Part shown: in pieces, positions 2,069 to 52,949 of the stretch
Numbering within the stretch: position 1 is the stretch's first letter
Layout: each line of letters starts with the position of its first letter
Assembly: GCA_017686895.1 (NCBI GenBank)
Contig: GCA_017686895.1_4521.1
Length of the DNA stretch: 64,000 nt
Direction: 5' to 3' (one strand)
From: a phage
Notes under the pieces: model-generated
Told to the model about the DNA's origin: nothing
The model's database searches: none
The model's input: the letters and a program-made list of their open reading frames with translations, nothing else
Program-made: the position numbers and the translations under genes

Positions 2069-2112
2069 GCATAATAATAAATAGATAAGTTAATTAACTT
2101 AGGAAAAGTAAC

Positions 2113-2577: not shown

Positions 2578-2584
2578 CATTCTT

Positions 2585-2612: not shown

Positions 2613-2702
2613 AGTTTGAATCTCTCAGAGAATGCTGTTACTGATAATACCAAAGTAATAAATAATTAATAACCAACCGATAAATTATTTCAAGGATTTT
2701 AA

Positions 2703-3266
2703 ATGAAAACCTACGCCGAATTTTTAACCGAAGCAGCAAAATTACCATCTGAAGCAGATCTTACTAAAGTATTCTTCCACTTGGATCCAAAAGACCGCGG
2801 CGATTTTCTTAAGTGGAAAGCTAAAGCTATTGAAATGTATAACATCGATACTAGTTCTTTTACGATGAGTCAAGAAAATAGTTTCAATAAAGCATTTTTC
2901 AAAATTTCTAAGAAACTGGCATCTGGCACACCGGTTCCTAAATCCGCCTTAGCTACTCCTGAACGTGCACCTGTTAAAATTTCTAAGAATATGTTTGACA
3001 CTAAAAAATACGTCAATGCTTTGAATAAAGCTCTTGATGCATTGGATGATGCAAAGAAGGCAGCCCGTGATCTTCAAGACGTGTACACTGATTTTGATCG
3101 TAAAACTAAAGGTTCTATTTCAAATAGCGAACGCAATAGTGTAAGTGTTTATTCTGATAGCCTTGATGTTCTTGGCGATGCGTATACTGAAATTAAAAAT
3201 CGTATTAACACTGCATCTAAGCTAAAAGCTGCTGCCGAAGCTATAATAACTAAACTAGGTAAATAA
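2703..3266 (+). CDS. internal head protein (IP-like) with capsid-targeting leader
   Basis: N-terminus MKTYAEFLTE; 187 aa; followed by terminator. Confidence 0.65.
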   Translation: MKTYAEFLTEAAKLPSEADLTKVFFHLDPKDRGDFLKWKAKAIEMYNIDTSSFTMSQENSFNKAFFKISKKLASGTPVPKSALATPERAPVKISKNMFDTKKYVNALNKALDALDDAKKAARDLQDVYTDFDRKTKGSISNSERNSVSVYSDSLDVLGDAYTEIKNRINTASKLKAAAEAIITKLGK

Positions 3267-3272
3267 TTTTAA

Positions 3273-3299
3273 AGCCCTATCTAAATGATAGGGCTTTTT
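3273..3299 (+). terminator. intrinsic terminator
   Basis: AGCCCTATC-TAAAT-GATAGGGCT then TTTTT. Confidence 0.6.
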
Positions 3300-3431
3300 G
3301 GTATCTAGGCCTTTCCCGGCCTCTCTAGGCATCATTTAGTTTCTGCCCTTTATAATATATTATCATATCCTTTGATTTCCCCTCCCTGCCCTAGAATTCC
3401 ACAAAACTTTTTAATTTTTTTTCACAAAACT

Positions 3432-3461
3432 GTTTACATCCCTGTTCTTCCGTGGTACTAT
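3432..3461 (+). promoter_or_regulatory. sigma70-type early promoter (approximate coordinates)
   Basis: GTTTAC -35, about 18 bp spacer, TGnTACTAT extended -10. Confidence 0.5.
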
Positions 3462-3503
3462 AAAACTATCAACTACCGATACAGAAAAACCTTGGAGAAT
3501 GAA

Positions 3504-3767
3504 ATGGATAATTACGGTGAACTGTTCAACTTCTTTATGAAATGCGTTCCAGACGATTTCGGACGTACGGTGAATGATATTAAAGTTATTGGACCTGACC
3601 ATCCGATGTTTGAAACTTACGCAGTAATGGGTAATGAAGACGGACAATGGTATACTGTAAAGGTTGTGATTAATATGTTCGCAGCAGAAGGTTATGTTAA
3701 ACTGTCTTCTAAAGTTTACCATGATAATGTCGAAATCGCTGAAGAATATTTCGATAATATGAAATAA
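3504..3767 (+). CDS. hypothetical protein
   Basis: Track ORF 3372..3767; internal ATG at 3504 preceded by GGAGA RBS. Confidence 0.45.
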   Translation: MDNYGELFNFFMKCVPDDFGRTVNDIKVIGPDHPMFETYAVMGNEDGQWYTVKVVINMFAAEGYVKLSSKVYHDNVEIAEEYFDNMK

Positions 3768-3824
3768 ATGCGTACATGGGCTTATGATTGAGATATTATG
3801 AGCCCTATTAATGAGGAGAATATT

Positions 3825-4130
3825 ATGAGTCTTTATACTGAACTGAATAAAAAATCTGAAGAATCTGCTGAAACCATTTTTAAAAACGTGCAAAAGCGTA
3901 TTTTAGAAAAGATGTATAACGCTGCATCTAAAGGTGAAAAATCTTGCCAGTTTCCGATGAGGTGTTCTTCAGATTTATGCGCAAATACTGTTGAATGGCT
4001 GGAAAGTGAAGGTCTTACGGTAGAGAAAAACCCGGCGTCTTCTATTGATGGCGAATCATATATTAGTATTTCTTGGGATAAACCACGTATGAATGAAGGA
4101 CACTACAAGTTGTTAAGTTGGAAAAATTAA
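3825..4130 (+). CDS. hypothetical protein
   Basis: ATG at 3825 preceded by GAGGAG RBS within track ORF 3798..4130. Confidence 0.45.
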   Translation: MSLYTELNKKSEESAETIFKNVQKRILEKMYNAASKGEKSCQFPMRCSSDLCANTVEWLESEGLTVEKNPASSIDGESYISISWDKPRMNEGHYKLLSWKN

Positions 4131-4198
4131 AAATAATGATGTACAAACACCAATGATGGTGATACTATAGGACTTATCAACTACAGAGGAGAAACAAA

Positions 4199-4426
4199 AT
4201 GGCTAAAGTTAGTATTGATGTCGTTGATTATGAATACACCGAAGAAGTTATTCGCAACCGACACCCTGAAGTTCGTATCGATTCAGCCCAAGATTCCAAG
4301 TTTTGGACAACTGAGCTTAATCTGAGTGGTCCTTATGAAGCTGTTAAGAAGTTCATGGTTGAAGAATACTGCGAAGGCATGCACCCAGAAGACGCCGAGT
4401 TTTATGTCAATTTGATTAAAAAATAA
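4199..4426 (+). CDS. hypothetical protein
   Basis: 75-aa ORF with AGAGGAGAA RBS. Confidence 0.5.
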   Translation: MAKVSIDVVDYEYTEEVIRNRHPEVRIDSAQDSKFWTTELNLSGPYEAVKKFMVEEYCEGMHPEDAEFYVNLIKK

Positions 4427-4474
4427 TTTACAAACTCTTGAGAGCAGAGTATAATGCTCTCGTTGGATAATAAA
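4427..4474 (+). repeat. promoter cassette copy 1 (approximate coordinates)
   Basis: ACAAACTCTTGAGAGCAGAGTATAATGCTCTCGTTGGATAATAAA; near-identical copy at about 33837..33882; palindrome GAGAGCA/TGCTCTC flanks the TATAAT. Confidence 0.6.
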
Positions 4475-4496
4475 CCACCAATTGAAAGGTAATAAT

Positions 4497-5090
4497 ATGA
4501 ACACACTGAAGAAACTTGTTGAATTCATCCGCACTAAACTGGGTACTGCTATGGCTAAAAATCTGACTGTCGAAGAACAGTATAACGCAGCCGCAGATAA
4601 GTTGATTACCCAAATCAAAGAACTAAAAACGGCTTCTGTTAAATCTATTAATGAAGAAAAACGTATTCGCGAACTTGTTAATGAAAAGAACAAGCAAGCC
4701 GCTTCTAAGGAACGTGAAATTCGTAAGCTCCTGGCTGAAGGACAAGATGTTACCATGCATGCTAAGCTTGGTCTTCTGTATCGTCGAACTGCCGAACAAC
4801 TTAATACAAAAGCTGACGGTTATGCCGCTATGCGAATTGAAATTGCTCGTAAGGTGGTTGAACTTGATGATGCTCGTCAGAATCTGGCAATCAAACTCGA
4901 ATACATTCGTGAAACTCGAGCAGCCAATGCCCTTGGTATCTCTACGGCTGATGATGTGATTGAAATTGCTGCACTGACTAAGGTTGATATCGAAGACACT
5001 CTGACTCGTGTTGAAACGTTCAATGGCACTCCAGCCGGTGTCGAAACCACTTCTGCTGATGTACAAGAATATATTAACTCTTTGAAATAA
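4497..5090 (+). CDS. hypothetical coiled-coil protein
   Basis: ATG at 4497 within track ORF 4482..5090; heptad-rich, charged sequence. Confidence 0.5.
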
Positions 5091-5098
5091 AATAATAC

Positions 5099-5120
5099 GG
5101 AGGACTCCGGTCCTCCTTTT
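5099..5120 (+). terminator. intrinsic terminator
   Basis: GGAGGAC-TCCG-GTCCTCC then TTTT. Confidence 0.65.
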
Positions 5121-5139
5121 GGATAATAAAGGAGTTAAC

Positions 5140-5736
5140 ATGCGAAACCAAAATAATGATATTGACTCAATGTTCGAAGAGTTCCGAGATAAGGTAAATC
5201 CACCTACGTCTTTAGTTGATTCATTACGATATGTTGCAACCGGACGTAAATGGTACTGGTCATCTTCTTATGAGACAACTGAATATGCAAATAACCGAAA
5301 ATCTTTATTAGCCCCAGGTATCATGATTAATGATATCGGAGCTATTGCTAAACTAGTTGCAGACCATGATATTAGATTCACTGATTTCGTTGCTCCTACG
5401 TGGTCTGTTTGTTGTTTAAACACTGAATGGGAATATATCAGCGAACGCTCTGAAGATTATTATGGTTTTAGAGATAAGCTTCTGAGGTCTAATATGTTTT
5501 ATATCGATACAGAAGTTCTAGTCGATAATAAAAAATACTACTTTACGTTAATCGTCGATTCTGAAACTATGTATGAAGGCAAGCCTTTGCTTAAGAGAGT
5601 TGATGCTTTAAGTGCTATTGATGCGCTTTATGAAACTATGGTTGTTAGTCCTAATTTCACTAACAATTTAATCCTTGAGCAATTTATTATGGAATGTAGA
5701 GAATATGTCAAAGCCAACCCTATACATGCCAAGTAA
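5140..5736 (+). CDS. hypothetical protein with EQFIMECRE motif near C-terminus
   Basis: ATG at 5140 after AAAGGAG RBS; C-terminal region carries the ExF(I/V)xECR tail shared with four downstream genes. Confidence 0.5.
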   Translation: MRNQNNDIDSMFEEFRDKVNPPTSLVDSLRYVATGRKWYWSSSYETTEYANNRKSLLAPGIMINDIGAIAKLVADHDIRFTDFVAPTWSVCCLNTEWEYISERSEDYYGFRDKLLRSNMFYIDTEVLVDNKKYYFTLIVDSETMYEGKPLLKRVDALSAIDALYETMVVSPNFTNNLILEQFIMECREYVKANPIHAK

Positions 5737-6100
5737 GCCCTGGGCGTATGAATACAAGCGTAAATTAATCCCAAATGAAGTACTATTTGGCCCTATTTTA
5801 GCTTTAGCATTTTTAATCTTTATGATTATAGGAGCCGTTTTAGATTCTAGTGAAGTTATATCGTCTGATGCAGCATTTTCATTAATGTTCGTCGCACCAC
5901 TTATTGTACCGTTTTTATTAATGCCTATTAACTGGATGGGATATTGGTACCAAGGACGTCATCACAGGGCCCGATTAAGAGAATGGAAAGTTCAGTGCGC
6001 AAAAGCCCAAGCTCAGTATGATGAAGCTGTTAAAAAGTATGAATATGAAGAAGCTATGGAATTCGTTAAGGAAATAAGATGCAAAAGCCTTAACTCTTAA
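5705..6100 (+). CDS. small membrane protein with EFVKEIRCK tail
   Basis: Two predicted TM helices (LFGPILALAFLIFMIIGAVL, FSLMFVAPLIVPFLLMPINW); start chosen at ATG 5705 (track start 5675 is TTG). Confidence 0.4.
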   Translation: MSKPTLYMPSKPWAYEYKRKLIPNEVLFGPILALAFLIFMIIGAVLDSSEVISSDAAFSLMFVAPLIVPFLLMPINWMGYWYQGRHHRARLREWKVQCAKAQAQYDEAVKKYEYEEAMEFVKEIRCKSLNS

Positions 6101-6141
6101 CCGTATGGCCTTCTCTTGGTGAGAACATTCTAATTTTTATT

Positions 6142-6438
6142 ATGAGTATTGGCATGGGATTTGCCTTTGGATTAGTTGGATTTATTATTGACGGCGTTGT
6201 GTTAGGATTTATAGGGAACACTGGTGGATTCACAGATCAATGGCAGGACTTACGGTATACCCAAGCCTTTGCATCCATCGCATCATTTTGTACTGTAGTC
6301 TATTTTTACTACAATTTTATAAACCATAACAAGAAAAATAAAAAAGTTTACGCTTCTCAAATGATTAGTTATAATGAACTCCTAGCTAGACGTGAAAATG
6401 AAACAATCGAAAACTTTATTAAGGAATGTAGAAAATGA
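6142..6438 (+). CDS. small membrane protein with ENFIKECRK tail
   Basis: Hydrophobic N-terminal half; ends ENFIKECRK. Confidence 0.5.
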   Translation: MSIGMGFAFGLVGFIIDGVVLGFIGNTGGFTDQWQDLRYTQAFASIASFCTVVYFYYNFINHNKKNKKVYASQMISYNELLARRENETIENFIKECRK

Positions 6439-6740
6439 GTAAGATTATTGAAATTAAAGTACCAGAGTTTAATGATGCCAAATCCGCTTCAGATGCAATT
6501 TATAAACTTCTGAATCAAGCTGAACGTATCGAAGAAGAAGCTACAAAGATTGCAGACCAATATGCAGTATCGTTTTCTGTAGGTGATTATGGTAGCGGTC
6601 GTACTTATTATCCTAAGGGTGAAATCGTATCCCAGTGGATGAAAGATGAAATTGAAAATAATGGCGGCGATGTTAAGCGTGAAGGTAATGGATACGTTAT
6701 TACTGAAGGTGCTTGGGTTTCATCTTCTGCGTTGTGCTAA
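6435..6740 (+). CDS. small protein, WVSSS-C tail family member 1
   Basis: Ends GAWVSSSALC; ATGA overlap with upstream gene. Confidence 0.5.
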   Translation: MSKIIEIKVPEFNDAKSASDAIYKLLNQAERIEEEATKIADQYAVSFSVGDYGSGRTYYPKGEIVSQWMKDEIENNGGDVKREGNGYVITEGAWVSSSALC

Positions 6741-6749
6741 GGAATCATT

Positions 6750-7022
6750 ATGTCTAAAGAACAAACCGAACTGGCTGAAGCTGTAGCAAAAATCTATGCA
6801 GTTATTGAGGCTGCCAAAGAAATTGCTGATAAACAAAACACAACATTCGACTTGTATCCAGCTTATGGTATGGGTGGAACGTATTATTCTCCTGGATTCT
6901 TGAAAAAAGAACTTGAGCATTATACCGAACAAGGCAATCCGAATTGGGCCACTGTCAACCAACACTCATATTACACCAGCCTCGAATCAGGTGGTTGGGT
7001 TGCATCTTCTATGGAATGCTAA
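6750..7022 (+). CDS. small protein, WVSSS-C tail family member 2
   Basis: Ends GGWVASSMEC; preceded by TAAGGAATCATTATG junction. Confidence 0.5.
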   Translation: MSKEQTELAEAVAKIYAVIEAAKEIADKQNTTFDLYPAYGMGGTYYSPGFLKKELEHYTEQGNPNWATVNQHSYYTSLESGGWVASSMEC

Positions 7023-7031
7023 GGAAATCAT

Positions 7032-7229
7032 ATGTCTCGTGAATTAGATTGTGCTGTACGTACGGCAGTAGCTGCTCTGGAAAACCTGTTCCAAATTGCA
7101 ACAGAAGAACGCGAAGAAGTTACATTATGGATTGAAGATAACGCAGGTCTGAATCTCCAGGACGCGATCTCATTATCCCACAATAGTATCACTGTTCAAG
7201 GCTGGGTATCATCTAGTTATTCTTGCTAA
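7032..7229 (+). CDS. small protein, WVSSS-C tail family member 3
   Basis: Ends QGWVSSSYSC; preceded by TAAGGAAATCATATG junction. Confidence 0.5.
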   Translation: MSRELDCAVRTAVAALENLFQIATEEREEVTLWIEDNAGLNLQDAISLSHNSITVQGWVSSSYSC

Positions 7230-7233
7230 AACA

Positions 7234-7263
7234 GTTTACAACAAGATAGGGCTATGTTATAGT
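7234..7263 (+). promoter_or_regulatory. early promoter inside a palindrome (approximate coordinates)
   Basis: GTTTAC, 18 bp spacer, TGTTATAGT; -10 flanked by ATAGGGCTA / TAGTCCTAT inverted repeat. Confidence 0.55.
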
Positions 7264-7291
7264 AGTCCTATCAAATTAAATGGAGACAACA

Positions 7292-7532
7292 ATGGTTTAT
7301 TACGAAAGTATCGGAACCGAAGTAGTTGCTAAAACTATTACTCGTGAAAAGTTTGCAAAGATATTCGATATGCGTTATAAAAAAATCTGAACACAAAGGC
7401 ATCCGATTCGAAGATGCGCACTGTACAATTTGCCCTTATAATGAAGACATAAACGGCACAATCGTTCCATTGGTAGAGGCTTCACATGACGACCTCTGGG
7501 ATGAATATAATATCGCATGTCGCGAAATTTAA
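7292..7532 (+). pseudogene. small Cys/His-containing protein gene interrupted by a frameshift at an A7 tract
   Basis: ATG 7292 with good RBS reads 31 codons into A7 run (7379..7385) then stops at 7388..7390; the +1 frame continues as track ORF 7326..7532 (SEHKGIRFEDAHCTICPYNEDINGT...). Confidence 0.4.
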
Positions 7533-7557
7533 GTAATCTAAATTCGAGGAAAATATT

Positions 7558-8514
7558 ATGATGTTAGTTATTGGTTCTCGTGCACTTCACTATCACGGTC
7601 TTATTGATTCTAGCGCTATCAAAAATAGTGATTGGGACTTTATTGCGGACCAATGTTCTTGGAATGCATTCAAAAATCAAATGATGGGTGTATATGTTCA
7701 CCAAGATAACCCTGGTGTCCAAGTTTTCAAATGTTTCCATAATGGACGCGAAACTCATTTTGAAGCATACATCGTTCCGGCTATCACTAACGTTCGCGAA
7801 CTAGTCGGTGAACTCACTCCTGAAGATTTCACGTCTTCTTATGACCTTTTAAAATACGCCAAGAAAAATTTGACTAAAGACCGTTTGAACGGGTTTTACT
7901 GGGCAACTCCTGAGATATGTCTTGCAATTAAGATGTCTCATCGTTTCAAGAAAAATAATCCATTCTTTTTAAAGACTATGAACCATATTCAGTATCTTCG
8001 TGGTAAAGGTGTTACACTGGACGATGAACTTACTGAAATTATGCTGAAACGCCAGAAAGAAACCTTGAACTATGCTCACCCAGTTCTTGACACTTCTAAA
8101 AGCGCATTCTTTAAAGATGACATCTATACGTATGACCATGATACTATTCACGAAGCCATTGCACTAACAGACCGTCCAGCGTATACATTTTATATGAAAG
8201 ATGGTTCTGAAGTCATGACCTCACGCGAGAAGTTCGAATCATTACCAGAAATGGTCAAATTAGCCGGCGTATACGAAGAATCATGTGTACTAGCGTTAGA
8301 ACGTTCTCAGATTCCTAATAACTTTGAAATCCATCCACGTGATAGTTTTATGATGGCATTAGAAAAAGTCTGTACTTCAATCACGTCAGGCTGGTTCCGT
8401 GAATACGCTTGGGAAAACTACAGCAAAGTTGTAAGTATGTACCAAAGCTTAGGACATGACGATTATGTAAAACGTTTTAAACAAAATTTCCATATGGTAA
8501 AACCTTTCAAATAA
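7558..8514 (+). CDS. hypothetical protein
   Basis: 318-aa ORF, ATG-ATG start after GAGGAAAA RBS; N-terminal IGSRALHYHG...DWDF weakly resembles a nucleotidyltransferase motif. Confidence 0.55.
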   Translation: MMLVIGSRALHYHGLIDSSAIKNSDWDFIADQCSWNAFKNQMMGVYVHQDNPGVQVFKCFHNGRETHFEAYIVPAITNVRELVGELTPEDFTSSYDLLKYAKKNLTKDRLNGFYWATPEICLAIKMSHRFKKNNPFFLKTMNHIQYLRGKGVTLDDELTEIMLKRQKETLNYAHPVLDTSKSAFFKDDIYTYDHDTIHEAIALTDRPAYTFYMKDGSEVMTSREKFESLPEMVKLAGVYEESCVLALERSQIPNNFEIHPRDSFMMALEKVCTSITSGWFREYAWENYSKVVSMYQSLGHDDYVKRFKQNFHMVKPFK

Positions 8515-8526
8515 TTTCGCAAAACT

Positions 8527-8556
8527 GTTTACACAATTATAGGACTATGTTATAGT
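8527..8556 (+). promoter_or_regulatory. early promoter inside a palindrome (approximate coordinates)
   Basis: GTTTAC, 18 bp, TGTTATAGT; flanked by ATAGGACTA / TAGTCCTAT. Confidence 0.55.
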
Positions 8557-8584
8557 AGTCCTATTAAAACATGAGGAGAATATT

Positions 8585-8890
8585 ATGAAATTAGGCGAAA
8601 CCAACCGAATTGGTCTTTTAACTATATTTGTATCACTTTTTTACGTAGCTCTTTCTGTTGCAGTATTACAAAAGGCTTACGATATGGATGGTGTTCCTGG
8701 TTTTGTATTCTTATCACCATTTTTATTATTCGTCGGGGCTTTGTTATTATATGCCACGACTAGTTTTGACCATAACGTCTGGGTTAATTATAAATGTAAA
8801 TTGTCTGAAGAAGAACACGCAGAAGCTCGTAAAAAAGCTATTGAATCTACCAATCTAGAAAATTTCATTAAAGAATGTCGAGGAAAATAA
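8585..8890 (+). CDS. small membrane protein with ENFIKECRGK tail
   Basis: Two hydrophobic segments; C-terminal LENFIKECRGK. Confidence 0.5.
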   Translation: MKLGETNRIGLLTIFVSLFYVALSVAVLQKAYDMDGVPGFVFLSPFLLFVGALLLYATTSFDHNVWVNYKCKLSEEEHAEARKKAIESTNLENFIKECRGK

Positions 8891-8891
8891 T

Positions 8892-9578
8892 ATGAATAGT
8901 TCTAAAGTGTTTAATAGTCAAGCTCGTGCAGTAGGTGGTTTTGCTCATAACGTACAAAATGACCAAATCAAAAATGAACCAATGTTCTTTAACTGTGATT
9001 TGAGTTTTGCTTGGGATAACGGCGGTCCTATTACTCGTAGCTTTATTGCCAATCTCCCAATTGATTGGACTAATCAACATGTTGTATTTGATTCTCGGGT
9101 TCATATGCTGATGCCTGGTTGGTATCCTGCTATTCCTGGATATCACCATGACGATGTTCCTCGCCCTGATATTCCAGTCGGCCAACACTTTATTACTGCA
9201 GGACAACCTGACTATGATAACCCTCGTTACCATTCTGAACATATTCTTGGTCTTGTTAACGCTGACGTGTGTCCTACTCATTTTGCAACAGGAACTGCAG
9301 AGTTCAGTCAGATTCCTGATGGCGAACTTATCTATCGCCAATGGCACAAAGAAGTCCTCGAAAAAATTGAAAAAGGTGAACTAGAGAAATGGGAAGCTCC
9401 AGACCGTACTCTTCTTCAGTTTGATTGGCAAACATGGCACACTGGTTCTCGTGCAATTAGTAATGGATGGCGTTGGTTCGGACGTGTATCTCGTAATACA
9501 GACCGAGTTAAAAAGATTACCAATGAAATTCGTGTCAATGCCCAAGTTTATCTGGAATTCCCTATGGAAGGCTGGTAA
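8892..9578 (+). CDS. putative Fe(II)/2-oxoglutarate-dependent oxygenase-like protein
   Basis: Candidate HxD (GYHHDD), distal His (WHTG) and RxS (RVS) in the spacing typical of the 2OG oxygenase fold; motif-level only. Confidence 0.4.
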   Translation: MNSSKVFNSQARAVGGFAHNVQNDQIKNEPMFFNCDLSFAWDNGGPITRSFIANLPIDWTNQHVVFDSRVHMLMPGWYPAIPGYHHDDVPRPDIPVGQHFITAGQPDYDNPRYHSEHILGLVNADVCPTHFATGTAEFSQIPDGELIYRQWHKEVLEKIEKGELEKWEAPDRTLLQFDWQTWHTGSRAISNGWRWFGRVSRNTDRVKKITNEIRVNAQVYLEFPMEGW

Positions 9579-10069
9579 TGATTAACAAAATATATTGGTC
9601 TAATATTGACGACGGCAATGAAGGTATTTCATACTATTCAGTAGATTGGACAGGATGTCCATCCTACTTAGTGAAACGTATTTGTCAAGAATTTAAAATC
9701 GACCAGCCAGCAGGTATTATCGTGAACAGATACATTAATGGATATCAACCTATCGATGAAGTAATACGAACAACTCAAGCTGATCTTGAAAAGTTTTTCA
9801 ATAAGTGTCAATGGATAACAGGATGGATTATATTTGTACCGTCGGTATGGTTTTTTAGTACTAAAGTAAGTGCCTTTGCCATACCAGATATTATCGCTAT
9901 CTTATTAGCATCTACTATCGTAAGTATTATTGGTGGTATTATTGGTGGAGGTACTATAGGCATCATTATTAATCTTGTTAAAAGTAGTTTACAGGAACGT
10001 AAAGACAAGATAAAGGCCAAGAATAATGAAGTTGAACGTTTTATTACCGAATGCAGGAATTTGAGATGA
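9578..10069 (+). CDS. membrane protein with ERFITECRNLR tail
   Basis: TAATG overlap start; Gly/Ile-rich TM segments; conserved tail. Confidence 0.5.
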   Translation: MINKIYWSNIDDGNEGISYYSVDWTGCPSYLVKRICQEFKIDQPAGIIVNRYINGYQPIDEVIRTTQADLEKFFNKCQWITGWIIFVPSVWFFSTKVSAFAIPDIIAILLASTIVSIIGGIIGGGTIGIIINLVKSSLQERKDKIKAKNNEVERFITECRNLR

Positions 10070-10302
10070 GTATAGCAATTTACATTAAATCAGAATCATG
10101 TGATAGTTATCTGTACACATATGATAAAGATGTGTCAGAAGAAAAAATCAAAGACGATCTTAATATGGACCTTGATTTGTTCAGTCCTATTGCAGATTAC
10201 AAACTTGCTGTCTCTAATAGTGAAAGTCCATCTAAAGAAACGCGTATTGAAGAATTTATGTCCGAATTAATGGCCAAATCATGGGACCGAGATGATGAGT
10301 AA
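10066..10302 (+). CDS. hypothetical acidic protein
   Basis: ATG 10066 overlapping upstream stop (ATGA). Confidence 0.45.
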   Translation: MSIAIYIKSESCDSYLYTYDKDVSEEKIKDDLNMDLDLFSPIADYKLAVSNSESPSKETRIEEFMSELMAKSWDRDDE

Positions 10303-10750
10303 GAAAAATAAAGTGAAAGAACTATCAGCCGGTATTATCTTCATGACAAAAGATAAAGAATTATTCATGGGTCGTGTAACTGGTTCTCGTCCTAAAGGTG
10401 CATTAGCTCATCGGTGGGATATTCCTAAAGGCCGTGTCGAACCTGGCGAATCTCCTATCGAAGCCGCTATTCGTGAATGCGAAGAAGAAACTGGGTTTAC
10501 ACAATATGACCCTGCCTTCCTGAAAGACCTAGGTGAACATCATTACTCAGACAATAAGAATATTCATCTGTTCCTATATACCATCCCTGTAGAGCACGAG
10601 CAATTCAGAAACAGTGTTTGTAATTCATATCATACATTCCCGGACGGACGACAGATTCCTGAATTTGATGCATTCGCTCTAATTAAACCTTCTCAATGGG
10701 AATATGTAATGGGCAAATCGTTATATAAGGTGCTCACTACCCTCCTATAA
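10292..10750 (+). CDS. nudE: Nudix hydrolase
   Basis: Nudix box GRVEPGESPIEAAIRECEEETGF; sits immediately upstream of lysozyme e. Confidence 0.85.
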   Translation: MMSKKNKVKELSAGIIFMTKDKELFMGRVTGSRPKGALAHRWDIPKGRVEPGESPIEAAIRECEEETGFTQYDPAFLKDLGEHHYSDNKNIHLFLYTIPVEHEQFRNSVCNSYHTFPDGRQIPEFDAFALIKPSQWEYVMGKSLYKVLTTLL

Positions 10751-10784
10751 GTAATAAATACCTCCTATAAACGTGGGAGGTATT

Positions 10785-11273
10785 ATGAATATATTTGAAA
10801 TGCTTCGTAATGACGAAGGTCTTAGACTGACTTTATACAAAGACACTGAAGGCTTTTGGACGATTGGTATAGGCCATTTAGTAACAAAGAACCCGTCTTT
10901 AGCCGTAGCTAAAGCTGAACTTGACAGAATGATCGGTCGTAAATGCAACGGTACAATTACCCTTGATGAGGCTGAAAAGCTATTTAATGAAGACGTTGAT
11001 AAAGCCGTTCGCGGAATCTTGGGTAATGCTAAACTTAAACCGGTATATGATTCTTTAGATGCGGTTCGTCGATGTGCATTGGTCAATATGGTCTTCCAAA
11101 TGGGTGTAGCAGGCGTTGCTGGTTTTACTAATTCTCTTCGTATGCTTCAACAGAAACGTTGGGATGAAGCGGCAGTAAATCTAGCTCAATCTAAATGGTA
11201 TCGTCAGACACCTAATCGCGCGAAACGCGTAATCTCAACATTTAAAACAGGAACTTGGAAAGCGTATATATGA
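10785..11273 (+). CDS. e: lysozyme (endolysin)
   Basis: [31 protein letters not shown]... nearly colinear with T4 lysozyme as I recall it; start at ATG 10785 after GGGAGG RBS. Confidence 0.95.
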
Positions 11274-46400: not shown

Positions 46401-47036
46401 ATGAAAACTACACCAATCACTATCGCTATTGACGCAATCGTAAAACAAGCTTCTTCTTTGGCTACTATGGCCAAAGTAATTAGTCAAAACCCTGCTCGTT
46501 ATAATGCTATTCTAGAAACTCTTCGACGCCCTGGACTGAGTAATTATGAAAGCCGAGTAATTATTACAGGTGTTGGTAAGAACGCTAATATCGCAACTAA
46601 AGCTTCCGAGACTTTTGCTTCACTAGGTATTCCTAGCATGTATTTGAACACCGGGCATTATTCTCATGGCGACGCAGGGTTTATTGCACCTAATGATGTA
46701 TTAGTTCACATCAGTCGTTCTGGTAAGACTGAAGAAATGATAGGTGTTGCTAAACATCTTCGTATGATTCGTCCTCAGGTTAAACAGATTCTGTTACATT
46801 GTAACCCTGACATTCCGCAAGAATACGAAGCTCTTTTTGATTATACGTTCTGTACAGGCATCGCGGTAGAGGTTGATGAGAATTCTCTGGCTCCGACCAT
46901 GTCCACTACATTGTTGTTAGCGCTTATCGATACGTTTGCTATCAACCTTTCGTCTGAACGTGGATTTACCTCTAATGACTTCCTTAAGTTCCACCCTGGT
47001 GGTGCACTAGGTGCCATGTTACGAGGCGAACAATGA
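46401..47036 (+). CDS. SIS-domain phosphosugar isomerase (KdsD/GutQ-like arabinose-5-phosphate isomerase without CBS domains)
   Basis: RVIITGVGKNANIATK, HISRSGKTEE and C-terminal FLKFHPGGALGAMLRG match the KdsD-type SIS domain as I recall it; 211 aa. Confidence 0.8.
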   Translation: MKTTPITIAIDAIVKQASSLATMAKVISQNPARYNAILETLRRPGLSNYESRVIITGVGKNANIATKASETFASLGIPSMYLNTGHYSHGDAGFIAPNDVLVHISRSGKTEEMIGVAKHLRMIRPQVKQILLHCNPDIPQEYEALFDYTFCTGIAVEVDENSLAPTMSTTLLLALIDTFAINLSSERGFTSNDFLKFHPGGALGAMLRGEQ

Positions 47037-47217: not shown

Positions 47218-48903
47218 ATGAAAAAAGCTGTTATTCTTGGTGCTGGACTGGCAACTCGTTTGTATCCAATAACGCACCATATTCCTAAGGTGCTTGTTAA
47301 CTATAAACAAGACACTATTCTGAGCAATTTGTATACAATTTATTCTGACCTTGGTGCAGATGAAATTATTGTAGTAGTTCATTCAAAATTTGTTGAAACT
47401 GTTCGAGCTTATTGTGAGCAAGAAGGGTTCAATGTGACTATTCGTACAGTTGATGAAGCGTATGGTTCTGCTTATGCTCTTGCTAAATTATACAAAGATT
47501 TAGATGGCCATAACGTAATTGTTAACTGGTGTGATATTATTCCTGATTTTGGTTCATGGTCTTGGAATGTTAACGCAATCTATGTTAAGGGTGATGAATG
47601 TCGATATAATTTCGATGGTGAAAATATCACTAACGTAGGTTCAACAGGCGGTAATGTTGTAGGAATTTATCAGTTCAAAGACTGGGAATTCTATATGGGT
47701 TCTACTGATGAGGAAATTCATGAATACTGCAAAGGGCGTGATTTCGTAGAATTCCTTTACGGCAGTGCATTCAATAAATCAGAGCTTATGAATCTAATTG
47801 ATTTAGGTGATATGCCTAAACTTGAAAAAGCTCATGAAGTTCGTGAACTTAATCGTAGTTTTAATGCAGTTGAAATTGGTGAAGAAACTGTAACTAAATT
47901 CGCATTAACCGAACAGGGACGAGCTCTTCAGAAAGATGAGATTTCGTGGTATCTTAAAGTGAAATCAGATTCAGTTCCTCAGTTAGTTTCTGTTAATGAA
48001 AATAACTTTGAAATGGAACGCATTAAAGGTAAGCCAGCATTTGAATATATTAAATCCAAATCAAGTCTTGCTCGTCCACAAATTGTTGATGCAATTTTAG
48101 ATGCACTGAAATTCAGCACAGACACTTATTTTGTAAGTCCTGAAACTGTTCGTCGTGATTTCACTAAAGAATTCTATACGAAAGTTATTGATCGTTGTGA
48201 AAGCATTCAACCATTGATTGATTCATTTGGTAAAATCACACATGTGAACTACACTAAGATTGGACGTCTGAAGCCAATGCTGAAACAAGCTTTAGAACAC
48301 CTTATTCGTTATCATAACCGTTCTCAGGGACAGTACTCTGTTATTCATGGTGACCCGAACTTCAGTAATACTATGATTACTGATAACGGCGAAGTCAAGT
48401 TTATCGACCCTCGTGGATATTTTGGCGAAACCAAGATTTACGGGCCAAAATTGTACGATGAAGCTAAAGTGCTTTATGCTGTTTCAGGTTATGATGAATT
48501 CAATGCTAATCCGACCTGGGGACAGTTTACTATTGATGAAACAACTTGTAATGTGACTATTAACATCAATCCATTAATTTACAAATATGGAAAGATGAGT
48601 TCGTTTAACGAGTATCATCATTTGGCGGTGGCAATTATCTGGATTGCATTAGGTGGTTATTTCAAGAATAATCCACTTAAAGCGGTAGCCGCATATTATA
48701 AAGGTATGGAACTTCTGACTAAGCAATTACGCAACATGGGCCGTGTACTTCAAGACGGCTCTATTAGTTATGACGTAGCAGAACCTGTAACGGCTACTCT
48801 GATTACAAAAAATCCTGGTAAATGGGTACTAACTGATAAAGAAACTGGTGTTTCCTATCGTCCAATCGGTGGCGATATCACTCATCAATGGGAACGAATC
48901 TAA
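47218..48903 (+). CDS. bifunctional sugar-phosphate nucleotidyltransferase / APH-ChoK-fold kinase
   Basis: N-terminal AVILGAGLATRLYPITHHIPKVLV (sugar nucleotidyltransferase G-x-G-x-R-L-x-P-x-T motif); C-terminal VIHGDPNFSNTMI and FIDPRGYFG (aminoglycoside/choline kinase Brenner and DxE-like motifs). Confidence 0.75.
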   Translation: MKKAVILGAGLATRLYPITHHIPKVLVNYKQDTILSNLYTIYSDLGADEIIVVVHSKFVETVRAYCEQEGFNVTIRTVDEAYGSAYALAKLYKDLDGHNVIVNWCDIIPDFGSWSWNVNAIYVKGDECRYNFDGENITNVGSTGGNVVGIYQFKDWEFYMGSTDEEIHEYCKGRDFVEFLYGSAFNKSELMNLIDLGDMPKLEKAHEVRELNRSFNAVEIGEETVTKFALTEQGRALQKDEISWYLKVKSDSVPQLVSVNENNFEMERIKGKPAFEYIKSKSSLARPQIVDAILDALKFSTDTYFVSPETVRRDFTKEFYTKVIDRCESIQPLIDSFGKITHVNYTKIGRLKPMLKQALEHLIRYHNRSQGQYSVIHGDPNFSNTMITDNGEVKFIDPRGYFGETKIYGPKLYDEAKVLYAVSGYDEFNANPTWGQFTIDETTCNVTININPLIYKYGKMSSFNEYHHLAVAIIWIALGGYFKNNPLKAVAAYYKGMELLTKQLRNMGRVLQDGSISYDVAEPVTATLITKNPGKWVLTDKETGVSYRPIGGDITHQWERI

Positions 48904-49289
48904 TGCACCGTGTAGAAAACATGCTTAATCTTTGTTTTGATGTCGATGATTGTATAACAGAGTGGAATAACAATCGTGATTACGTGAACTTCAAACCAGA
49001 CGTCGAAATGGTGTCTGCCATTAATGCCCTGTATGATGCAGGGCATACCATAACGCTTTACACTGCTCGTGGTATGAAGTCAGTAGGTCCTGGTCGTATA
49101 GCAATTGACATTCTCCCAAGTCTGATTCAGAACTTGGCAAACATTGGCTTGAAGTACCATAATTTGCTAACACATAAACCAGTATATGATTGGATTATCG
49201 ACGACAAAGCTATGCGTCCTGACGAATTCAAAGCTCTTATGAATAAAGGCGAATTCGAAACATTTAAATCATATAAACCGAATCTATAA
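48903..49289 (+). CDS. HAD-superfamily phosphatase
   Basis: Motif I FDVDDCIT (DxDxT), motif III-like K-x-DWIIDDK; TAATG overlap with upstream gene. Confidence 0.65.
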   Translation: MHRVENMLNLCFDVDDCITEWNNNRDYVNFKPDVEMVSAINALYDAGHTITLYTARGMKSVGPGRIAIDILPSLIQNLANIGLKYHNLLTHKPVYDWIIDDKAMRPDEFKALMNKGEFETFKSYKPNL

Positions 49290-49335: not shown

Positions 49336-50505
49336 ATGCAAAAAATGAATACTTTTAAAATCGGAACGAATTTTGATTTAGCTCTTCTTGATAAAATCGT
49401 AGAGCTCAATAAAACCTATCCTAATAGCTTGATAAACGAAGTATATGGCTCTACAAGAGAAATGGCTTTTGTAGCAGCCAGACCTGATTTTAGGCTTCCT
49501 GACGTTGACAAAAAGATGTTAGAAGATTACGTTAAACGTTGTAACGAATTAGGTATTTGCTTTAACTATACACTCAACACGATAAATCCTGGTTCAAAAA
49601 GAGAACTAGTTGAGTGGAAGAAGAAAGCTATTCAGGATTATGTTCAGTATCTTTGGTCAATAGGCGTATGGCGTATTACTATCGCTAACCCTGTTGTTAT
49701 GGAAATTGTTCGTGAAGTCAATAAAGATATTGAGATTGAAGTTTCAACAATTCTACATGTCGATGCGGTAACTCAAATCAAATACTTACATGACCAATAT
49801 AACATCAAAAAGGTCTGTTGCGGAATTCATAAGAACCGTTCAGTTTCTTTCCTGAAGCGTGCAGCAGAGTTTTGCAATAAGAACAATATAATATTTGAAG
49901 TTCTTGTAAATGAGTTCTGTTCTAATGCTGGTAAAGGGTATACAACACATTGTAGTTATCGTGACTCTTGCTATATTTTCCATAGTACTGATGTTACAGC
50001 TGATGATGCTAAATCCTTAAATGGATATCCAATGCAACACTGCATTAAAGCTCGTGATACAGACCCATTTAACTGGTTGAGAACTCGTTTTGTTCGTCCT
50101 CAAGATTTGAAACTTTATAATGATATTGGTATCACTCAATTCAAAGTTTCAGGACGTACAGGTAGCACAGACTACATTTTGAAAGTTCTTGAAGCATACG
50201 CTTCTGAAAAGTTTGAAGGTAATTTGTTAGAACTGTGGAAGCCTTTAGAGACTATTTTCACTCTTGAAAATGAGACTGAGTTTTCACATACAGTAAATAT
50301 TGAAACCTCTTTGTTAGATGGCTTTTTAGAAAAAAGGTGGTTCAGACATCCAGATTTTGATTGTGCTAATGAAATCTGTGGGTCAACGTGTACATATTGT
50401 GAAAGGTATTATAAACGTCAATTATCTAAAAACGGGTTAGCAGAAAACTCCATATCTATTATTGATATAACTAACTCTGATGACGCTTTGAGGTACCCGG
50501 AATGA
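49336..50505 (+). CDS. Cys-rich protein with peptidase-U32-like features (tentative)
   Basis: EVLVNEFCSNAGKGYTTHCSYRDSC resembles the U32 signature region; many cysteines including C-terminal CGSTCTYC (Cx3Cx2C); family not confirmed. Confidence 0.3.
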   Translation: MQKMNTFKIGTNFDLALLDKIVELNKTYPNSLINEVYGSTREMAFVAARPDFRLPDVDKKMLEDYVKRCNELGICFNYTLNTINPGSKRELVEWKKKAIQDYVQYLWSIGVWRITIANPVVMEIVREVNKDIEIEVSTILHVDAVTQIKYLHDQYNIKKVCCGIHKNRSVSFLKRAAEFCNKNNIIFEVLVNEFCSNAGKGYTTHCSYRDSCYIFHSTDVTADDAKSLNGYPMQHCIKARDTDPFNWLRTRFVRPQDLKLYNDIGITQFKVSGRTGSTDYILKVLEAYASEKFEGNLLELWKPLETIFTLENETEFSHTVNIETSLLDGFLEKRWFRHPDFDCANEICGSTCTYCERYYKRQLSKNGLAENSISIIDITNSDDALRYPE

Positions 50506-50741
50506 TTTCTAGAAAAAGTTTTAATTATAAACTTAACGAAGAGATTTTGACTATGAAACTGAACACTAACGAACAAATTCTTAAAAAGGCCCTTATGGGC
50601 CTGTTTGAAACCAAAGCGGCTAAAGTGATTAAAGAACCTGTTCAATTGGAATACTACACTGATGCATTCCTTCATAGTGTTCTTGGAAGTATAGATTCTG
50701 AAGCTTTACGTTATATCAACATTGTCAAGAAATTCAAATAA
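50502..50741 (+). CDS. hypothetical protein
   Basis: 79-aa ORF, ATGA overlap. Confidence 0.4.
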   Translation: MISRKSFNYKLNEEILTMKLNTNEQILKKALMGLFETKAAKVIKEPVQLEYYTDAFLHSVLGSIDSEALRYINIVKKFK

Positions 50742-50764
50742 GCTTTATGAATTGAGTATATAAT
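50742..50764 (+). promoter_or_regulatory. candidate middle promoter (approximate coordinates)
   Basis: GCTTTA box, 11 bp, TATAAT, about 20 bp upstream of ATG 50784. Confidence 0.4.
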
Positions 50765-50783
50765 AAATTGTATTGAGGTAAAT

Positions 50784-51500
50784 ATGGGAAAACATAACAC
50801 AATGAAATATATCAAAGCCGCAGATTTTCAAACCGCATTTAAAGCAGTCAATCGTGAAATTTTAGAAAACCCCGAATTCGTAACTGATTCTCGTATTGGA
50901 CGTTGTAATGAAATTGGGTCTATGACAGTAGTTGTTGACACTCCATCATCATTCAAAATGACCGACCCACGTATTAACCGCATCTCTTATGAATATGCCG
51001 AAGACTTCTGGAAGTTTATGATTTCTGGTGGTACCAACGCAGAAGAAGCGTTTAAGGCATATCCTAATGTCGCTAAATTTATTTCTAAACCAAAATCAGA
51101 TGTTTTGCCGGCGAACTTCAACACTTTCTATGGTCCTCGCATTGCGGCCCAATTACCAACTCTTCTAAAAGAACTTAAAGAAAAACCTAACTCTCGAAGA
51201 GTTGTGTTCCAAATTCTAGAAAGTTCTGATCAGGCTTTGCTTGATTCGGACGAAACACTTGAATATCCATGTACTGACTCAGTAACTTATTATATTCGTG
51301 ATGGTAAGCTTTATACCCACTGTCATATGCGTTCTCAGAACTGTGCTGTTGTTATGCAGTTGGATTTTTATCTCCAAGGAAAATTACTTCATTATATCGC
51401 TAACGAATGCGGTGTAGAAGTTGGTGATTATACTCATACCATGGTAAGTGCCCATGTGTTTGAACGTGATTTTGATTATGTTAAAGGATTCCTTGACTAA
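50784..51500 (+). CDS. 42: thymidylate-synthase-fold pyrimidine hydroxymethylase (dCMP hydroxymethylase-like, divergent)
   Basis: PNSRRVVFQI, catalytic-Cys region YPCTDSVTYYIRDGKLYTHCHMRSQN and VSAHVFERDF align to the PDSRRGIMIY / MCTNTVQYLIRD..NMRSND / GSLHVYSRHF blocks of T4 gp42 as I recall them. Confidence 0.65.
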   Translation: MGKHNTMKYIKAADFQTAFKAVNREILENPEFVTDSRIGRCNEIGSMTVVVDTPSSFKMTDPRINRISYEYAEDFWKFMISGGTNAEEAFKAYPNVAKFISKPKSDVLPANFNTFYGPRIAAQLPTLLKELKEKPNSRRVVFQILESSDQALLDSDETLEYPCTDSVTYYIRDGKLYTHCHMRSQNCAVVMQLDFYLQGKLLHYIANECGVEVGDYTHTMVSAHVFERDFDYVKGFLD

Positions 51501-52399
51501 TGGCTATTTTCCGCGTACCAATCTTGAGTATGCGGTCTTATGAAACTGGACAGTATGCTATCCTTAAGGATGGCAACTTCCAACTTCATTTGCACCGTGC
51601 TAATCCAGGTGATGTGATTACATATCCACGTAATGCATCTGATATTAAAGAATGCGAACGTCTTTTCCCAGAATTTAAGTTTGTTCCATTATGGTATAAA
51701 GATAACGCGTATAACACTCGTAAATATTTCTGGTCTGAAAATGAATTTGTGGTTGATTCATTAATTGCTTATTATGATTGTGATTTTCTAATCACAGATA
51801 TCACCGGATATGACGGCGCTTTTGATGTGGAATTCAATTTCAATATCACTGCAGACCCTAATAAACCACGTTTTTATATTGACGAATTCTTAAAAACTGA
51901 TATGTTGTCGGTTAATCGTTCACTTCAAACTACTGTGTTGAATGAACGTCAAAAAGAAGTGCTGGTTAACGCAGGTGCAGATGGTAATAAGATTATCGTA
52001 ACGCAGAAAGTTATACGTCCTTCCATCATGCAGCGTCTTGTAGGTGATTTGGCTCCTATTCATCTAGATGGTATTTTTCATCCATTTCGAATTAGTGACC
52101 CGTGCTATCGTTTTGAACAAGTGGTTGAATGTGCAATTCAATTAGGCCAACCGCTTTATATAACCGATCCAAATAATAGCTTCGACAGAAATAAGTATCC
52201 TGAAGAAGCATTGATTCGAATTTTTAAACCAACTAAAACTGAGTACTATCAAATTCTTAAAGGACGTCCGAAGATTCAATATTTCGAAAATCCTGAAGAA
52301 GTATTCCATCCAGGTCTTGGTGAGTTCATCTACTTTAATGCTTTAATTTCTTCGCCGTATAATATACCTAAATATGAAGATGTCGTAATCGAGGAATAA
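51500..52399 (+). CDS. hypothetical protein at the beta-gt position
   Basis: 299-aa ORF with no recognised motif; TAATG overlap with hydroxymethylase; occupies the slot of T4 beta-glucosyltransferase. Confidence 0.3.
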   Translation: MAIFRVPILSMRSYETGQYAILKDGNFQLHLHRANPGDVITYPRNASDIKECERLFPEFKFVPLWYKDNAYNTRKYFWSENEFVVDSLIAYYDCDFLITDITGYDGAFDVEFNFNITADPNKPRFYIDEFLKTDMLSVNRSLQTTVLNERQKEVLVNAGADGNKIIVTQKVIRPSIMQRLVGDLAPIHLDGIFHPFRISDPCYRFEQVVECAIQLGQPLYITDPNNSFDRNKYPEEALIRIFKPTKTEYYQILKGRPKIQYFENPEEVFHPGLGEFIYFNALISSPYNIPKYEDVVIEE

Positions 52400-52400
52400 A

Positions 52401-52949
52401 ATGGCTAAAATTATTTTAGTAGATGGCCCGGATAATGCTGGTAAAACAACTTTCATTAATGACATAATGGAAATTAGTGAAAGATATGTAAAGATTGATT
52501 TCCCTAAACGAACAGTTGATGGACGTTTCGATGTTAAGTCTCGAAATGAAGTTGGCTGTTTCGAAACTATGTTGAATTATTTAGACCCTACTAAGATTTA
52601 TCTATTAGACCGTGGATATATTAGTAACTGGGTTTATGGACGTATTCGACAAGATGCGGACTCGGTTCTTGACGTTTATGAACAGGATTATGTTCGTCTT
52701 TGCCAAAACCATGATGTGTTCACAATTATTTTAACACGTAACGAAATGACTGAAAGTTTTGAAGACGACCTTATTACTTTGTCTTCATTCGGTTTTAATA
52801 CAGTAATTTCACATTTTGAAGAGTTTGCAATTCATAACGAAATCCAAACGTATCAATTACTTAATCATGATGGTGCTAACAAAGTTATAGGATTTAATGC
52901 AAGCGAACGTAATAATTTGATTACAGAAATCATCAAATGGGCTCGTTAA
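52401..52949 (+). CDS. thymidylate-kinase-like P-loop nucleotide kinase
   Basis: Walker A ILVDGPDNAGKTT and DRGYISNWVYG (Tmk DR-Y-like motif). Confidence 0.6.
   Translation: MAKIILVDGPDNAGKTTFINDIMEISERYVKIDFPKRTVDGRFDVKSRNEVGCFETMLNYLDPTKIYLLDRGYISNWVYGRIRQDADSVLDVYEQDYVRLCQNHDVFTIILTRNEMTESFEDDLITLSSFGFNTVISHFEEFAIHNEIQTYQLLNHDGANKVIGFNASERNNLITEIIKWAR

Follow-up and report, generated by a model that had tools for sequence, protein, structure and literature searches.

The subject of this work is a gene of the U32 family in a 64,000-nucleotide stretch of phage DNA (NCBI GenBank assembly GCA_017686895.1, contig GCA_017686895.1_4521.1; the whole stretch is called the window in the following). 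The gene is an open reading frame (ORF) opening with ATG at 49336..50505 on the + strand, as an earlier note made from the sequence had listed it, and its 389 aa product is the orthologue of gp50 (ORF050c) of phage RB69. With slightly more than even confidence we favour the reading that gp50 is an O2-independent, prephenate-dependent iron-sulfur (Fe-S) hydroxylase, which supplies the 5-hydroxyl group of the modified cytosine and under anoxia duplicates the step of a homologue of thymidylate synthase (ThyA). The family membership of the protein, its conserved ligand sets, the patterns of its gene neighbourhoods and its phyletic distribution are established here, and it is from this context that we infer the hydroxylase activity, the use of prephenate, the substrate and the anaerobic role.

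In the proposed mechanism the U32 enzyme would take the oxygen atom from prephenate without any O2, and its product would be a 5-hydroxylated cytosine deoxynucleotide, 5-hydroxy-deoxycytidine monophosphate (5-hydroxy-dCMP), the same as that of the O2- and flavin-dependent ThyA-like enzyme. After phosphorylation this nucleotide would be incorporated into DNA, and arabinose would be attached to its new hydroxyl group. Fe-S clusters, bound by the residues C195/C206/C212/C236 and C343/C348/C352/C355, would serve in electron transfer. In most relatives of the window phage a chorismate mutase (CM) of their own, adjoining U32, would convert host chorismate to prephenate, and the window phage would use prephenate from PheA and TyrA of its host. 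Such a phage would have an aerobic and an anaerobic route for one essential step, like E. coli with UbiI/H/F versus UbiU/V and TrhO versus TrhP.

RB69 DNA contains arabinosylated 5-hydroxycytosine and not hydroxymethylcytosine (Lee et al., NAR 2026, PMC13326640), and cytosine in virion DNA is described there as completely replaced. The ThyA homologue gp48 makes 5-hydroxy-dCMP, binds flavin and obtains the oxygen atom from O2 according to 18O2 labelling (PMC13326640). The synthesis of UDP-arabinose is attributed to AfhE-like and AfhF-like enzymes (PMC13326640, citing He et al.), and Acinetobacter phage DLP3, the cluster of which has no U32 gene, makes a tri-arabinosylated base (PMC13326640). 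A condition-limited role would fit gp50, because the remainder of the pathway can be explained without it. In the same paper gp50 is a table entry only ('Sugar or heterocycle reductase', based on a fold match to 5d88), and RNA pyrimidine hydroxylation pathways are mentioned separately without being tied to it (PMC13326640); the GenBank label of the U32 protein in phage Bas46 is 'putative enzyme involved in UDP-arabinose biosynthesis'. Prephenate donates the oxygen in the UbiU/V-dependent pathway, genetic evidence shows that RlhA and TrhP require it (PMC10990095, PMC5727448, PMC6599085), and E. coli makes it via PheA and TyrA (PMC10990095, PMC5727448). RB69-like phages also carry nrdD, the gene of an anaerobic ribonucleotide reductase (PMC13390438). 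Thus the gene and its U32 label are already known, and new with respect to the literature searched are the mechanistic reading and the partnership with chorismate mutase; text searches revealed no paper joining U32, prephenate and phage DNA and nothing relevant under the Afh gene names.

The U32 protein and its putative metal sites

The U32 assignment was tentative in the earlier note, which had named a profile search as a check. The similarity is readily detectable: PF01136 (Peptidase_U32) matches the window protein with 42.2 bits (E-value (E) 7.4e-11; gathering score 22.4) over aa 97-289, corresponding to 49624..50202 on the + strand, and the protein is a genuine member of this family and not a chance resemblance. 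A precomputed PF01136 match is present in nearly all listed homologues, and phrog_5757, which is labelled 'peptidase', matches the protein nearly end to end (E 3.6e-267). An AlphaFold2 model computed from 29 homologues (mean predicted local distance difference test score 89.8, predicted template modelling score 0.89) has the (beta/alpha) barrel of PF01136, the domain lying within a TIM-barrel-like fold. Its top match in a Foldseek search against solved structures, Mk0906 (PDB 5d88; E 2e-6, template modelling score 0.70, target-normalised), likewise bears out the U32 resemblance and is to our knowledge the only solved Peptidase_U32 member. A single-sequence phmmer search of the window protein against the PDB sequences gave nothing meaningful.

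The true start of the gene is likely the second in-frame ATG at 49345 (two ATGs are found within 49336-49347), leading to a product of 386 aa, because a GAG is located about 9 nucleotides upstream and is better spaced than for the first ATG, and because this is the annotated start in phage Bas46 and the start of most homologues. The ratio of nonsynonymous to synonymous substitution rates (dN/dS) versus relatives is 0.03-0.07, with dS being saturated, and indicates strong purifying selection; every conserved ligand described below is kept in the window protein.

A word-index search identified 282 homologues, among which RB69-like proteins share 76-88% identity and a large group of metagenomic proteins comes next with 48-58%. 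An exhaustive profile search yielded 1,672 clusters (50% identity) at E<=1e-3, of which 454 remained at E<=1e-30; almost all are about 360 aa long and match the profile over its whole length. None of the curated NCBIfam equivalog cutoffs of UbiU, UbiV, TrhP and RlhA was reached: the best equivalog score of the window protein was that of UbiU with 18.4 bits versus a cutoff of 440, and a scan of 29 family members gave only weak matches, to UbiU (11) and TrhP (4). As the UbiU and TrhP equivalogs match only marginally, the phage proteins are, as judged from their sequences, a separate U32 subfamily outside every characterised one.

The earlier note had pointed to a region reminiscent of the U32 signature. 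The quoted peptide EVLVNEFCSNAGKGYTTHCSYRDSC is indeed found at aa 187-212, and the motif turned out to be a variant with the spacing C195-X10-C206-X5-C212-X23-C236, not the canonical CX6CX15CX3C which is found in RlhA and TrhP and from which UbiU and UbiV depart. When the family profile was aligned by hhalign to the four characterised E. coli U32 proteins, RlhA was the best match (E 3e-5, 203 columns, probability 73%) with E193, C206 and C212 of the phage protein falling on E161, C169 and C176 of RlhA; the single sequences of UbiU, UbiV and TrhP gave weak or partial alignments only. In RlhA C169 and C176 are essential for the formation of 5-hydroxycytidine, E161 is nearly so, and cysteines at the C-terminus are also needed (PMC5727448).

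Conservation was measured over 127 full-length representatives showing 23-49% identity to the query. C195 is conserved in 99% and both C206 and C236 in 100% of them, a Cys is found at position 212 in 60% and a His in 39%, an exchange typical of a metal ligand, and C343, C348, C352 and C355 are each conserved in 94-95%. Furthermore, K270 and R274 are invariant, and C161 and C180 are not conserved. Two four-ligand metal sites are therefore predicted, as expected for an Fe-S protein. Putative site 1 coincides with the variant U32 motif (E193, C195, C206, C212 and C236; aa 187-236, 49894..50043, + strand), and putative site 2 is a C-terminal CX4CX3CX2C cluster (50362..50400, + strand), in which the Cx3Cx2C seen earlier forms part of the larger C343-x4-C348-x3-C352-x2-C355. 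At the sequence level four conserved ligands able to hold a [4Fe-4S] cluster are present. From ligand conservation and gene context we infer, in line with the earlier note, an Fe-S and O2-independent hydroxylase rather than a peptidase. A radical S-adenosylmethionine (SAM) reading of the C-terminal CX3CX2C with its aromatic residue before the last Cys was also considered and rejected, as there is no PF04055 match, the motif lies behind the barrel in the C-terminal tail, and one more conserved Cys, the fourth, stands in front of it.

Chorismate mutase, gene neighbourhoods and distribution

To describe the neighbourhoods of U32 we compared 49 viral loci, 12 loci from genome collections and two metagenomic contigs, for which ORFs were called, neighbours clustered and recurrent clusters annotated. 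The contextual clue that bears most on the mechanism is chorismate mutase, the enzyme of the prephenate-forming step, together with 3-deoxy-D-arabino-heptulosonate 7-phosphate (DAHP) synthase, the enzyme of the first shikimate step. CM is located within 2.2 kb of U32 in 10 of the 39 dereplicated lineages, and two more have DAHP synthase alone beside U32 (L004, 11145-11891; L021, 9384-10130). DAHP synthase fused to a type II CM lies beside U32 in six loci of uncultivated phages, namely L032 (8411-9433), L034, L035 (7302-8357), L037 (8332-9387), L046 (11085-12203) and L059 (8940-9968). In eight others (L039, L041, L043, L044, L048, L049, L060 and L061) a stand-alone CM of 107-151 aa overlaps or abuts the U32 stop codon, and in 13 of 16 T-even relatives (L009-L020, L022) a CM of 78-132 aa is found between U32 and the ThyA homologue, e.g. 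at 11170-11409 in L010 and 11394-11630 in L022, where it separates U32 from the 5-hydroxy-dCMP synthase. All tested CMs pass the Pfam CM_2 profile with 36-68 bits (gathering score 27). The mini-CM is present in at least 51 of 50,697 isolated-phage records, always inside the U32 cassette. We know of no other reason why a phage should place an enzyme for prephenate synthesis next to U32. In a few GenBank records 'chorismate mutase', 'U32 family peptidase' and 'thymidylate synthase' already stand as adjacent entries. The DAHP-synthase-like neighbour had also been considered as a Kdo8P synthase partnering the SIS isomerase, which we rejected as its main interpretation because its NCBIfam scores are 237 bits for DAHPS versus 63 bits for KDO8PS and five members are fused to CM_2.

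Outside the T-even phages three types of cassette recur. The first consists of a glycosyltransferase-like gene, a SIS isomerase, a nucleotidyltransferase/kinase, a HAD phosphatase and U32, which is the RB69 order. The second has a thymidylate-kinase-like (TMK-like) kinase, a glycosyltransferase-like gene, U32 and DNA polymerase III alpha. The third, present in L047 and L062-L067 (e.g. L062, 7192-11083; L066, 3044-7125), comprises a GP88-family protein (PF17338), a guanylate-kinase/SAM-methyltransferase fusion of about 430 aa, an unknown protein of about 270 aa and U32; by analogy it suggests that a hydroxylated nucleotide might subsequently be O-methylated. The comparison case is the conversion of 5-hydroxyuridine to 5-methoxyuridine in tRNA, and we know of no O-methylated hydroxypyrimidine DNA base of this kind. 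Genes for dUTPase and dCMP deaminase also recur near U32, and because kinase, dUTPase and deaminase neighbours recur, the U32 enzyme would most likely act at the mononucleotide level.

Within 10 kb on either side of U32 no ThyA-fold protein was found in the loci outside the T-even phages except for L023, which we rejected as a locus with a ThyA-type hydroxylase and U32 since its ThyA has the canonical residues of thymidylate synthase. A 44-kb U32 contig, of which 89% was covered, showed no ThyA-fold gene with a profile that recovered every positive control. The cassettes with U32 only nevertheless hold glycosyltransferase, sugar-activation, HAD and deoxynucleoside monophosphate (dNMP) kinase genes in RB69 order. 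There are thus phages with the ThyA-type hydroxylase only, with U32 only and with both, and this is the pattern expected of two unrelated enzymes doing one job.

Some loci showed further features. In L003, a jumbo-phage-like contig of 466 kb from the Joint Genome Institute, U32 follows a MazG/dUTPase-like gene, a radical SAM/SPASM protein and an unknown protein of 402 aa within 944-11086, where genes for thymidylate kinase, a UDG-family protein, DNA polymerase III alpha and dCMP deaminase also precede it and no sugar genes are found nearby. In nine loci on contigs of 190-295 kb (L039, L041, L043, L044, L046, L048, L049, L060 and L061, at about 5000-9900) two divergent RimK-like ATP-grasp genes precede U32, as do three small conserved ORFs (c20, c21 and c14), with c14 (82 aa) located directly upstream. 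Close relatives of the 44-kb U32 phage (L029/L072/L073), which were recognised by a 676-aa marker protein with 66-68% identity (L075-L080), have no cassette of kinase, glycosyltransferase and U32 within 10 kb on either side of the marker, so that this cassette may be accessory in the 44-kb phage group as well.

The ThyA type of the 5-hydroxy-dCMP synthase is present in about 341 phage records including 57 from Acinetobacter and 20 from Rhizobium phages. U32 is present in 222 phage records, and the matches listed all have hosts among the Enterobacterales or Shewanella and at least 80% identity; no Acinetobacter or Rhizobium phage is named among them, including the 57 Acinetobacter records with the O2-dependent synthase. 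Acinetobacter and Rhizobium are aerobes, and the hosts of the U32-bearing phages are facultative anaerobes. In the Acinetobacter cassette, as well as in DLP3, the HAD phosphatase is directly followed by the ThyA homologue, and presence or absence of U32 is that of a clean module between the HAD phosphatase and the 5-hydroxy-dCMP synthase. About 9 of the 12 matches from genome collections are metagenome-assembled genomes (MAGs) labelled as anaerobic gut groups (the MAG labels being Oscillospiraceae, Romboutsia, Tannerella, Phocaeicola, Gastranaerophilaceae, Erysipelotrichales, a Clostridia bin from deer colon and Angelakisella), labels that can be wrong for phage contigs because of binning.

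The cassette in the window

A 6-kb stretch of the window is 98-99% identical to many RB69-like phages and the U32 protein shares 99-100% identity with RB69 ORF050c and with the orthologues of ORF050c, which identifies the window at the sequence level as a Mosigvirus, a T-even coliphage of the RB69 type. Its genes are arranged in the order DNA polymerase, arabinose-5-phosphate isomerase, nucleotidyltransferase/kinase, HAD phosphatase, U32, a 79-aa ORF, ThyA homologue, glycosyltransferase, kinase and UvsX, and all genes described in the following are on the + strand. According to the Bas46 annotation and PMC13326640 the SIS-domain arabinose-5-phosphate isomerase (46401..47036) is the orthologue of RB69 gp55, and SIS homologues are found in the cassettes of uncultivated phages. 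It is followed by the AfhE-like bifunctional nucleotidyltransferase/kinase (47218..48903; RB69 gp52:53 orthologue by annotation and PMC13326640), homologues of which with 25-31% identity lie beside U32 in many viral contigs, and by the AfhF-like HAD-type phosphatase (48888..49289; RB69 gp51 orthologue by Bas46 annotation and PMC13326640). The latter is located directly upstream of U32, and the order of HAD and then U32 is kept in uncultivated phages.

Downstream of U32, ORF calling revealed the small orf79 (50502..50741; RB69 ORF049c), the start of which overlaps the U32 stop codon (ATGA) with its own GAGG upstream and which is translationally coupled to the U32 gene. Its product has no Cys and no Pfam match, and its homologues are confined to Mosigvirus-like phages, diverge faster than U32 and are often shortened to 47-58 aa. 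The position of orf79 made it a candidate for a chorismate mutase, which was rejected as the CM profile gave E 0.55, hhalign found no similarity and there is no PF01817 match. An orf79-like ORF and a CM coexist in L009, L016, L018 and L022.

The ThyA homologue (50784..51500; RB69 gp48 orthologue) shows 98.7% identity to RB69 ORF048c and carries E143/N169/D177 (E. coli numbering), the signature of the published 5-hydroxy-dCMP synthases. The earlier note had taken this neighbour for a pyrimidine hydroxymethylase, which these residues contradict: they mark it as an O2/flavin-dependent 5-hydroxy-dCMP synthase, and DNA of the RB69 type contains arabinosyl-5-hydroxycytosine and not arabinosyl-hydroxymethylcytosine. 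Public records name it 'dCMP hydroxymethylase' or 'thymidylate synthase', labels that are outdated given this signature. The spacer between orf79 and the ThyA gene (about 50745-50783) holds GTATATAATAAATTG, which resembles a promoter -10 or late-promoter element, and the ThyA gene may therefore have its own promoter apart from that of U32/orf79. The cassette continues with DNA arabinosyltransferase 1 (51500..52399; RB69 gp46:47 orthologue) and a thymidylate-kinase-like nucleotide kinase (52401..52949; RB69 gp45 orthologue), both assigned from the Bas46 annotation and PMC13326640; the gp45 kinase family (c19) is also found in the kinase, glycosyltransferase and U32 cassettes of uncultivated phages.

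Alternative readings and comparison with known systems

The earlier note had suggested that the U32 enzyme might add a further chemical step to the base or the sugar. This is most likely not the case, and the evidence points to a second, O2-independent route to the same C5 hydroxylation. A further step on the base is not called for, because the C5 hydroxyl of cytosine is the only hydroxylation in the pathway, and a role at the sugar is unlikely because AfhE and AfhF account for UDP-arabinose, DLP3 without U32 tri-arabinosylates its base and two of the three cassette types have no sugar-activation genes. Several points weigh against a prephenate-dependent hydroxylation of the nucleotide. In the literature searched, which excluded He et al. 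2026 (Nat Chem Biol) and Mahler et al. 2025 (Cell Host Microbe), we found no biochemical or genetic test of gp50, and for no U32 protein has direct hydroxylase activity been reconstituted in vitro (PMC10990095). The characterised U32 enzymes act on RNA polymers or on a prenylated quinone precursor and not on mononucleotides (PMC10990095, PMC5727448, PMC6599085). The canonical CX6CX15CX3C is not present in the window protein and only the first Cys pair aligns with RlhA. The likeness of the phage protein to RlhA, TrhP and UbiU is weak. No CM was found anywhere in the 64-kb window and the Mosigvirus lineage is generally without it, so that the strongest contextual clue is borrowed from relatives and the window phage would have to rely on host prephenate. 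Furthermore, the O2-dependent synthase occurs without U32 in about 40 E. coli phage records (e.g. Dhakavirus) and in some Enterobacter phages (Kanagawavirus); since Dhakavirus-type E. coli phages do without it, U32 is not required to infect facultative anaerobes. The contrast between aerobes and anaerobes is one-sided and comes from few independent phage lineages, which makes it supporting evidence and not proof. Finally, U32 also travels with sugar-activation genes, leaving room for a role at the sugar.

The same chemistry could be directed at another substrate, namely cytosine in replicated DNA or dCTP, e.g. for converting residual unmodified cytosine. RlhA and TrhP, the U32 enzymes that hydroxylate nucleobases, do act on polymers (PMC5727448, PMC6599085), and so do the glycosyltransferases of the cassette, which act on DNA according to PMC13326640. 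Yet we regard this as unlikely, since a complete replacement of cytosine is easier via the nucleotide pool, the recurrent neighbours of U32 are dNMP-kinase-type genes (TMK-like c19, guanylate-kinase fusions) and dUTPase/dCMP-deaminase genes, and the Pfam scan of the window protein showed no DNA-binding domain. Quite unlikely in our view is that U32 belongs to the sugar branch as a redox or rearrangement enzyme acting on arabinose phosphate or UDP-arabinose. The order SIS, nucleotidyltransferase/kinase, HAD and U32, kept in RB69-like and in many uncultivated phages, would fit this, as would the labels from the PMC13326640 table and from Bas46, both of which are computational guesses. However, the synthesis of UDP-arabinofuranose is described as complete with AfhE and AfhF in PMC13326640, and besides DLP3 with its tri-arabinosylated base other phages without U32 retain the rest of the cassette. 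The two cassette types that have no sugar-activation genes (kinase, glycosyltransferase and U32; GP88, kinase/methyltransferase and U32) do not fit either, and it is not obvious what a chorismate mutase partner would do in the chemistry of a pentose.

Very unlikely is an RNA hydroxylation of the tRNA U34 or rRNA C2501 type, by which translation during infection would be tuned independently of DNA modification. The nearest characterised relatives are RNA hydroxylases and T-even phages encode tRNAs, but the gene lies within DNA-modification cassettes of three architectures, in which it is translationally coupled, it comes and goes as a clean module between the HAD phosphatase and the 5-hydroxy-dCMP synthase, and E. 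coli already has RlhA and TrhP. We give hardly any credence to a peptidase or collagenase-like protease, even if the family name and the GenBank and PHROG labels ('peptidase') say so: the label is inherited, the characterised members are linked to O2-independent hydroxylation, and eight conserved putative metal ligands along with a chorismate mutase partner do not fit a protease.

Probably the phage proteins represent a U32 hydroxylase subfamily of viruses that is directed at nucleotides, has a ligand pattern of its own and is served by a dedicated supply of prephenate. A more far-reaching reading, in which our confidence falls just short of even, is that CM and the U32 Fe-S enzyme form a two-gene phage module and the first known O2-independent pathway hydroxylating a DNA base precursor. 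In phages whose hosts are strict anaerobes the U32 enzyme would be the sole hydroxylase, supplying DNA with 5-hydroxypyrimidines that are glycosylated and possibly O-methylated, and it would work alongside a later-evolved O2/flavin-dependent ThyA-type enzyme in T-even enterobacterial phages. If the prephenate-dependent reading is true, it would explain how RB69-like phages can replicate in the anoxic gut despite an O2-requiring enzyme in the replacement of every cytosine. It would add DNA precursors, and viruses, to the prephenate-dependent U32 hydroxylation known from RNA and ubiquinone, and it would account for chorismate mutase and DAHP synthase genes, the presence of which in phages is otherwise hard to understand. 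A compact phage enzyme with a small soluble nucleotide substrate and a defined co-substrate would then be an attractive test system, with which prephenate-dependent U32 hydroxylation could be reconstituted in vitro for the first time. The subfamily of about 1,670 clusters also marks candidate DNA hypermodification cassettes in uncultivated phages, and several of these cassettes lie on contigs of MAGs that carry the label of a gut anaerobe. For phage therapy this may mean that Mosigvirus-type candidates and relatives without U32 are not equally good at modifying their DNA, and hence at evading restriction, when oxygen is absent.

Among known proteins Mk0906 from Methanopyrus kandleri (PDB 5d88) is the best structural match to the phage model, a match also reported in PMC13326640, with 10% sequence identity and coverage of the barrel core only (247 aa). 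Closer in its proposed chemistry at C5 of cytosine is RlhA (YdcP), the E. coli 5-hydroxycytidine synthase for C2501 of 23S rRNA. It shares PF01136 with the phage protein, its required Glu and two U32-motif Cys align with E193, C206 and C212, both proteins have conserved C-terminal cysteines, and RlhA depends on prephenate and Fe-S biogenesis (PMC5727448). In contrast to the phage protein with its approximately 386 aa and presumed deoxynucleotide substrate, RlhA has 653 aa, the canonical CX6CX15CX3C and an rRNA precursor as substrate. The 5-hydroxy-dCMP synthases RB69 gp48, DLP3 gp80 and HY126, the window member of which is encoded about 280 bp downstream of U32, would share the proposed product with U32. 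They differ from it by an unrelated fold and other cofactors as well as by their O2 dependence, and they occur without U32 in phages of Acinetobacter, Rhizobium and some E. coli phages.

The closest parallel to the two enzymes taken together is found in UbiU/V versus UbiI/H/F and TrhP versus TrhO. The phage pair differs from these E. coli pairs in being viral and encoded in one operon-like cassette, in the ThyA fold of its O2-dependent partner and in that no UbiT-like accessory protein was seen. In all of them, however, a flavin/O2 hydroxylase and a U32 protein serve what is apparently the same hydroxylation, and the organism that encodes them is exposed to oxic as well as anoxic conditions.

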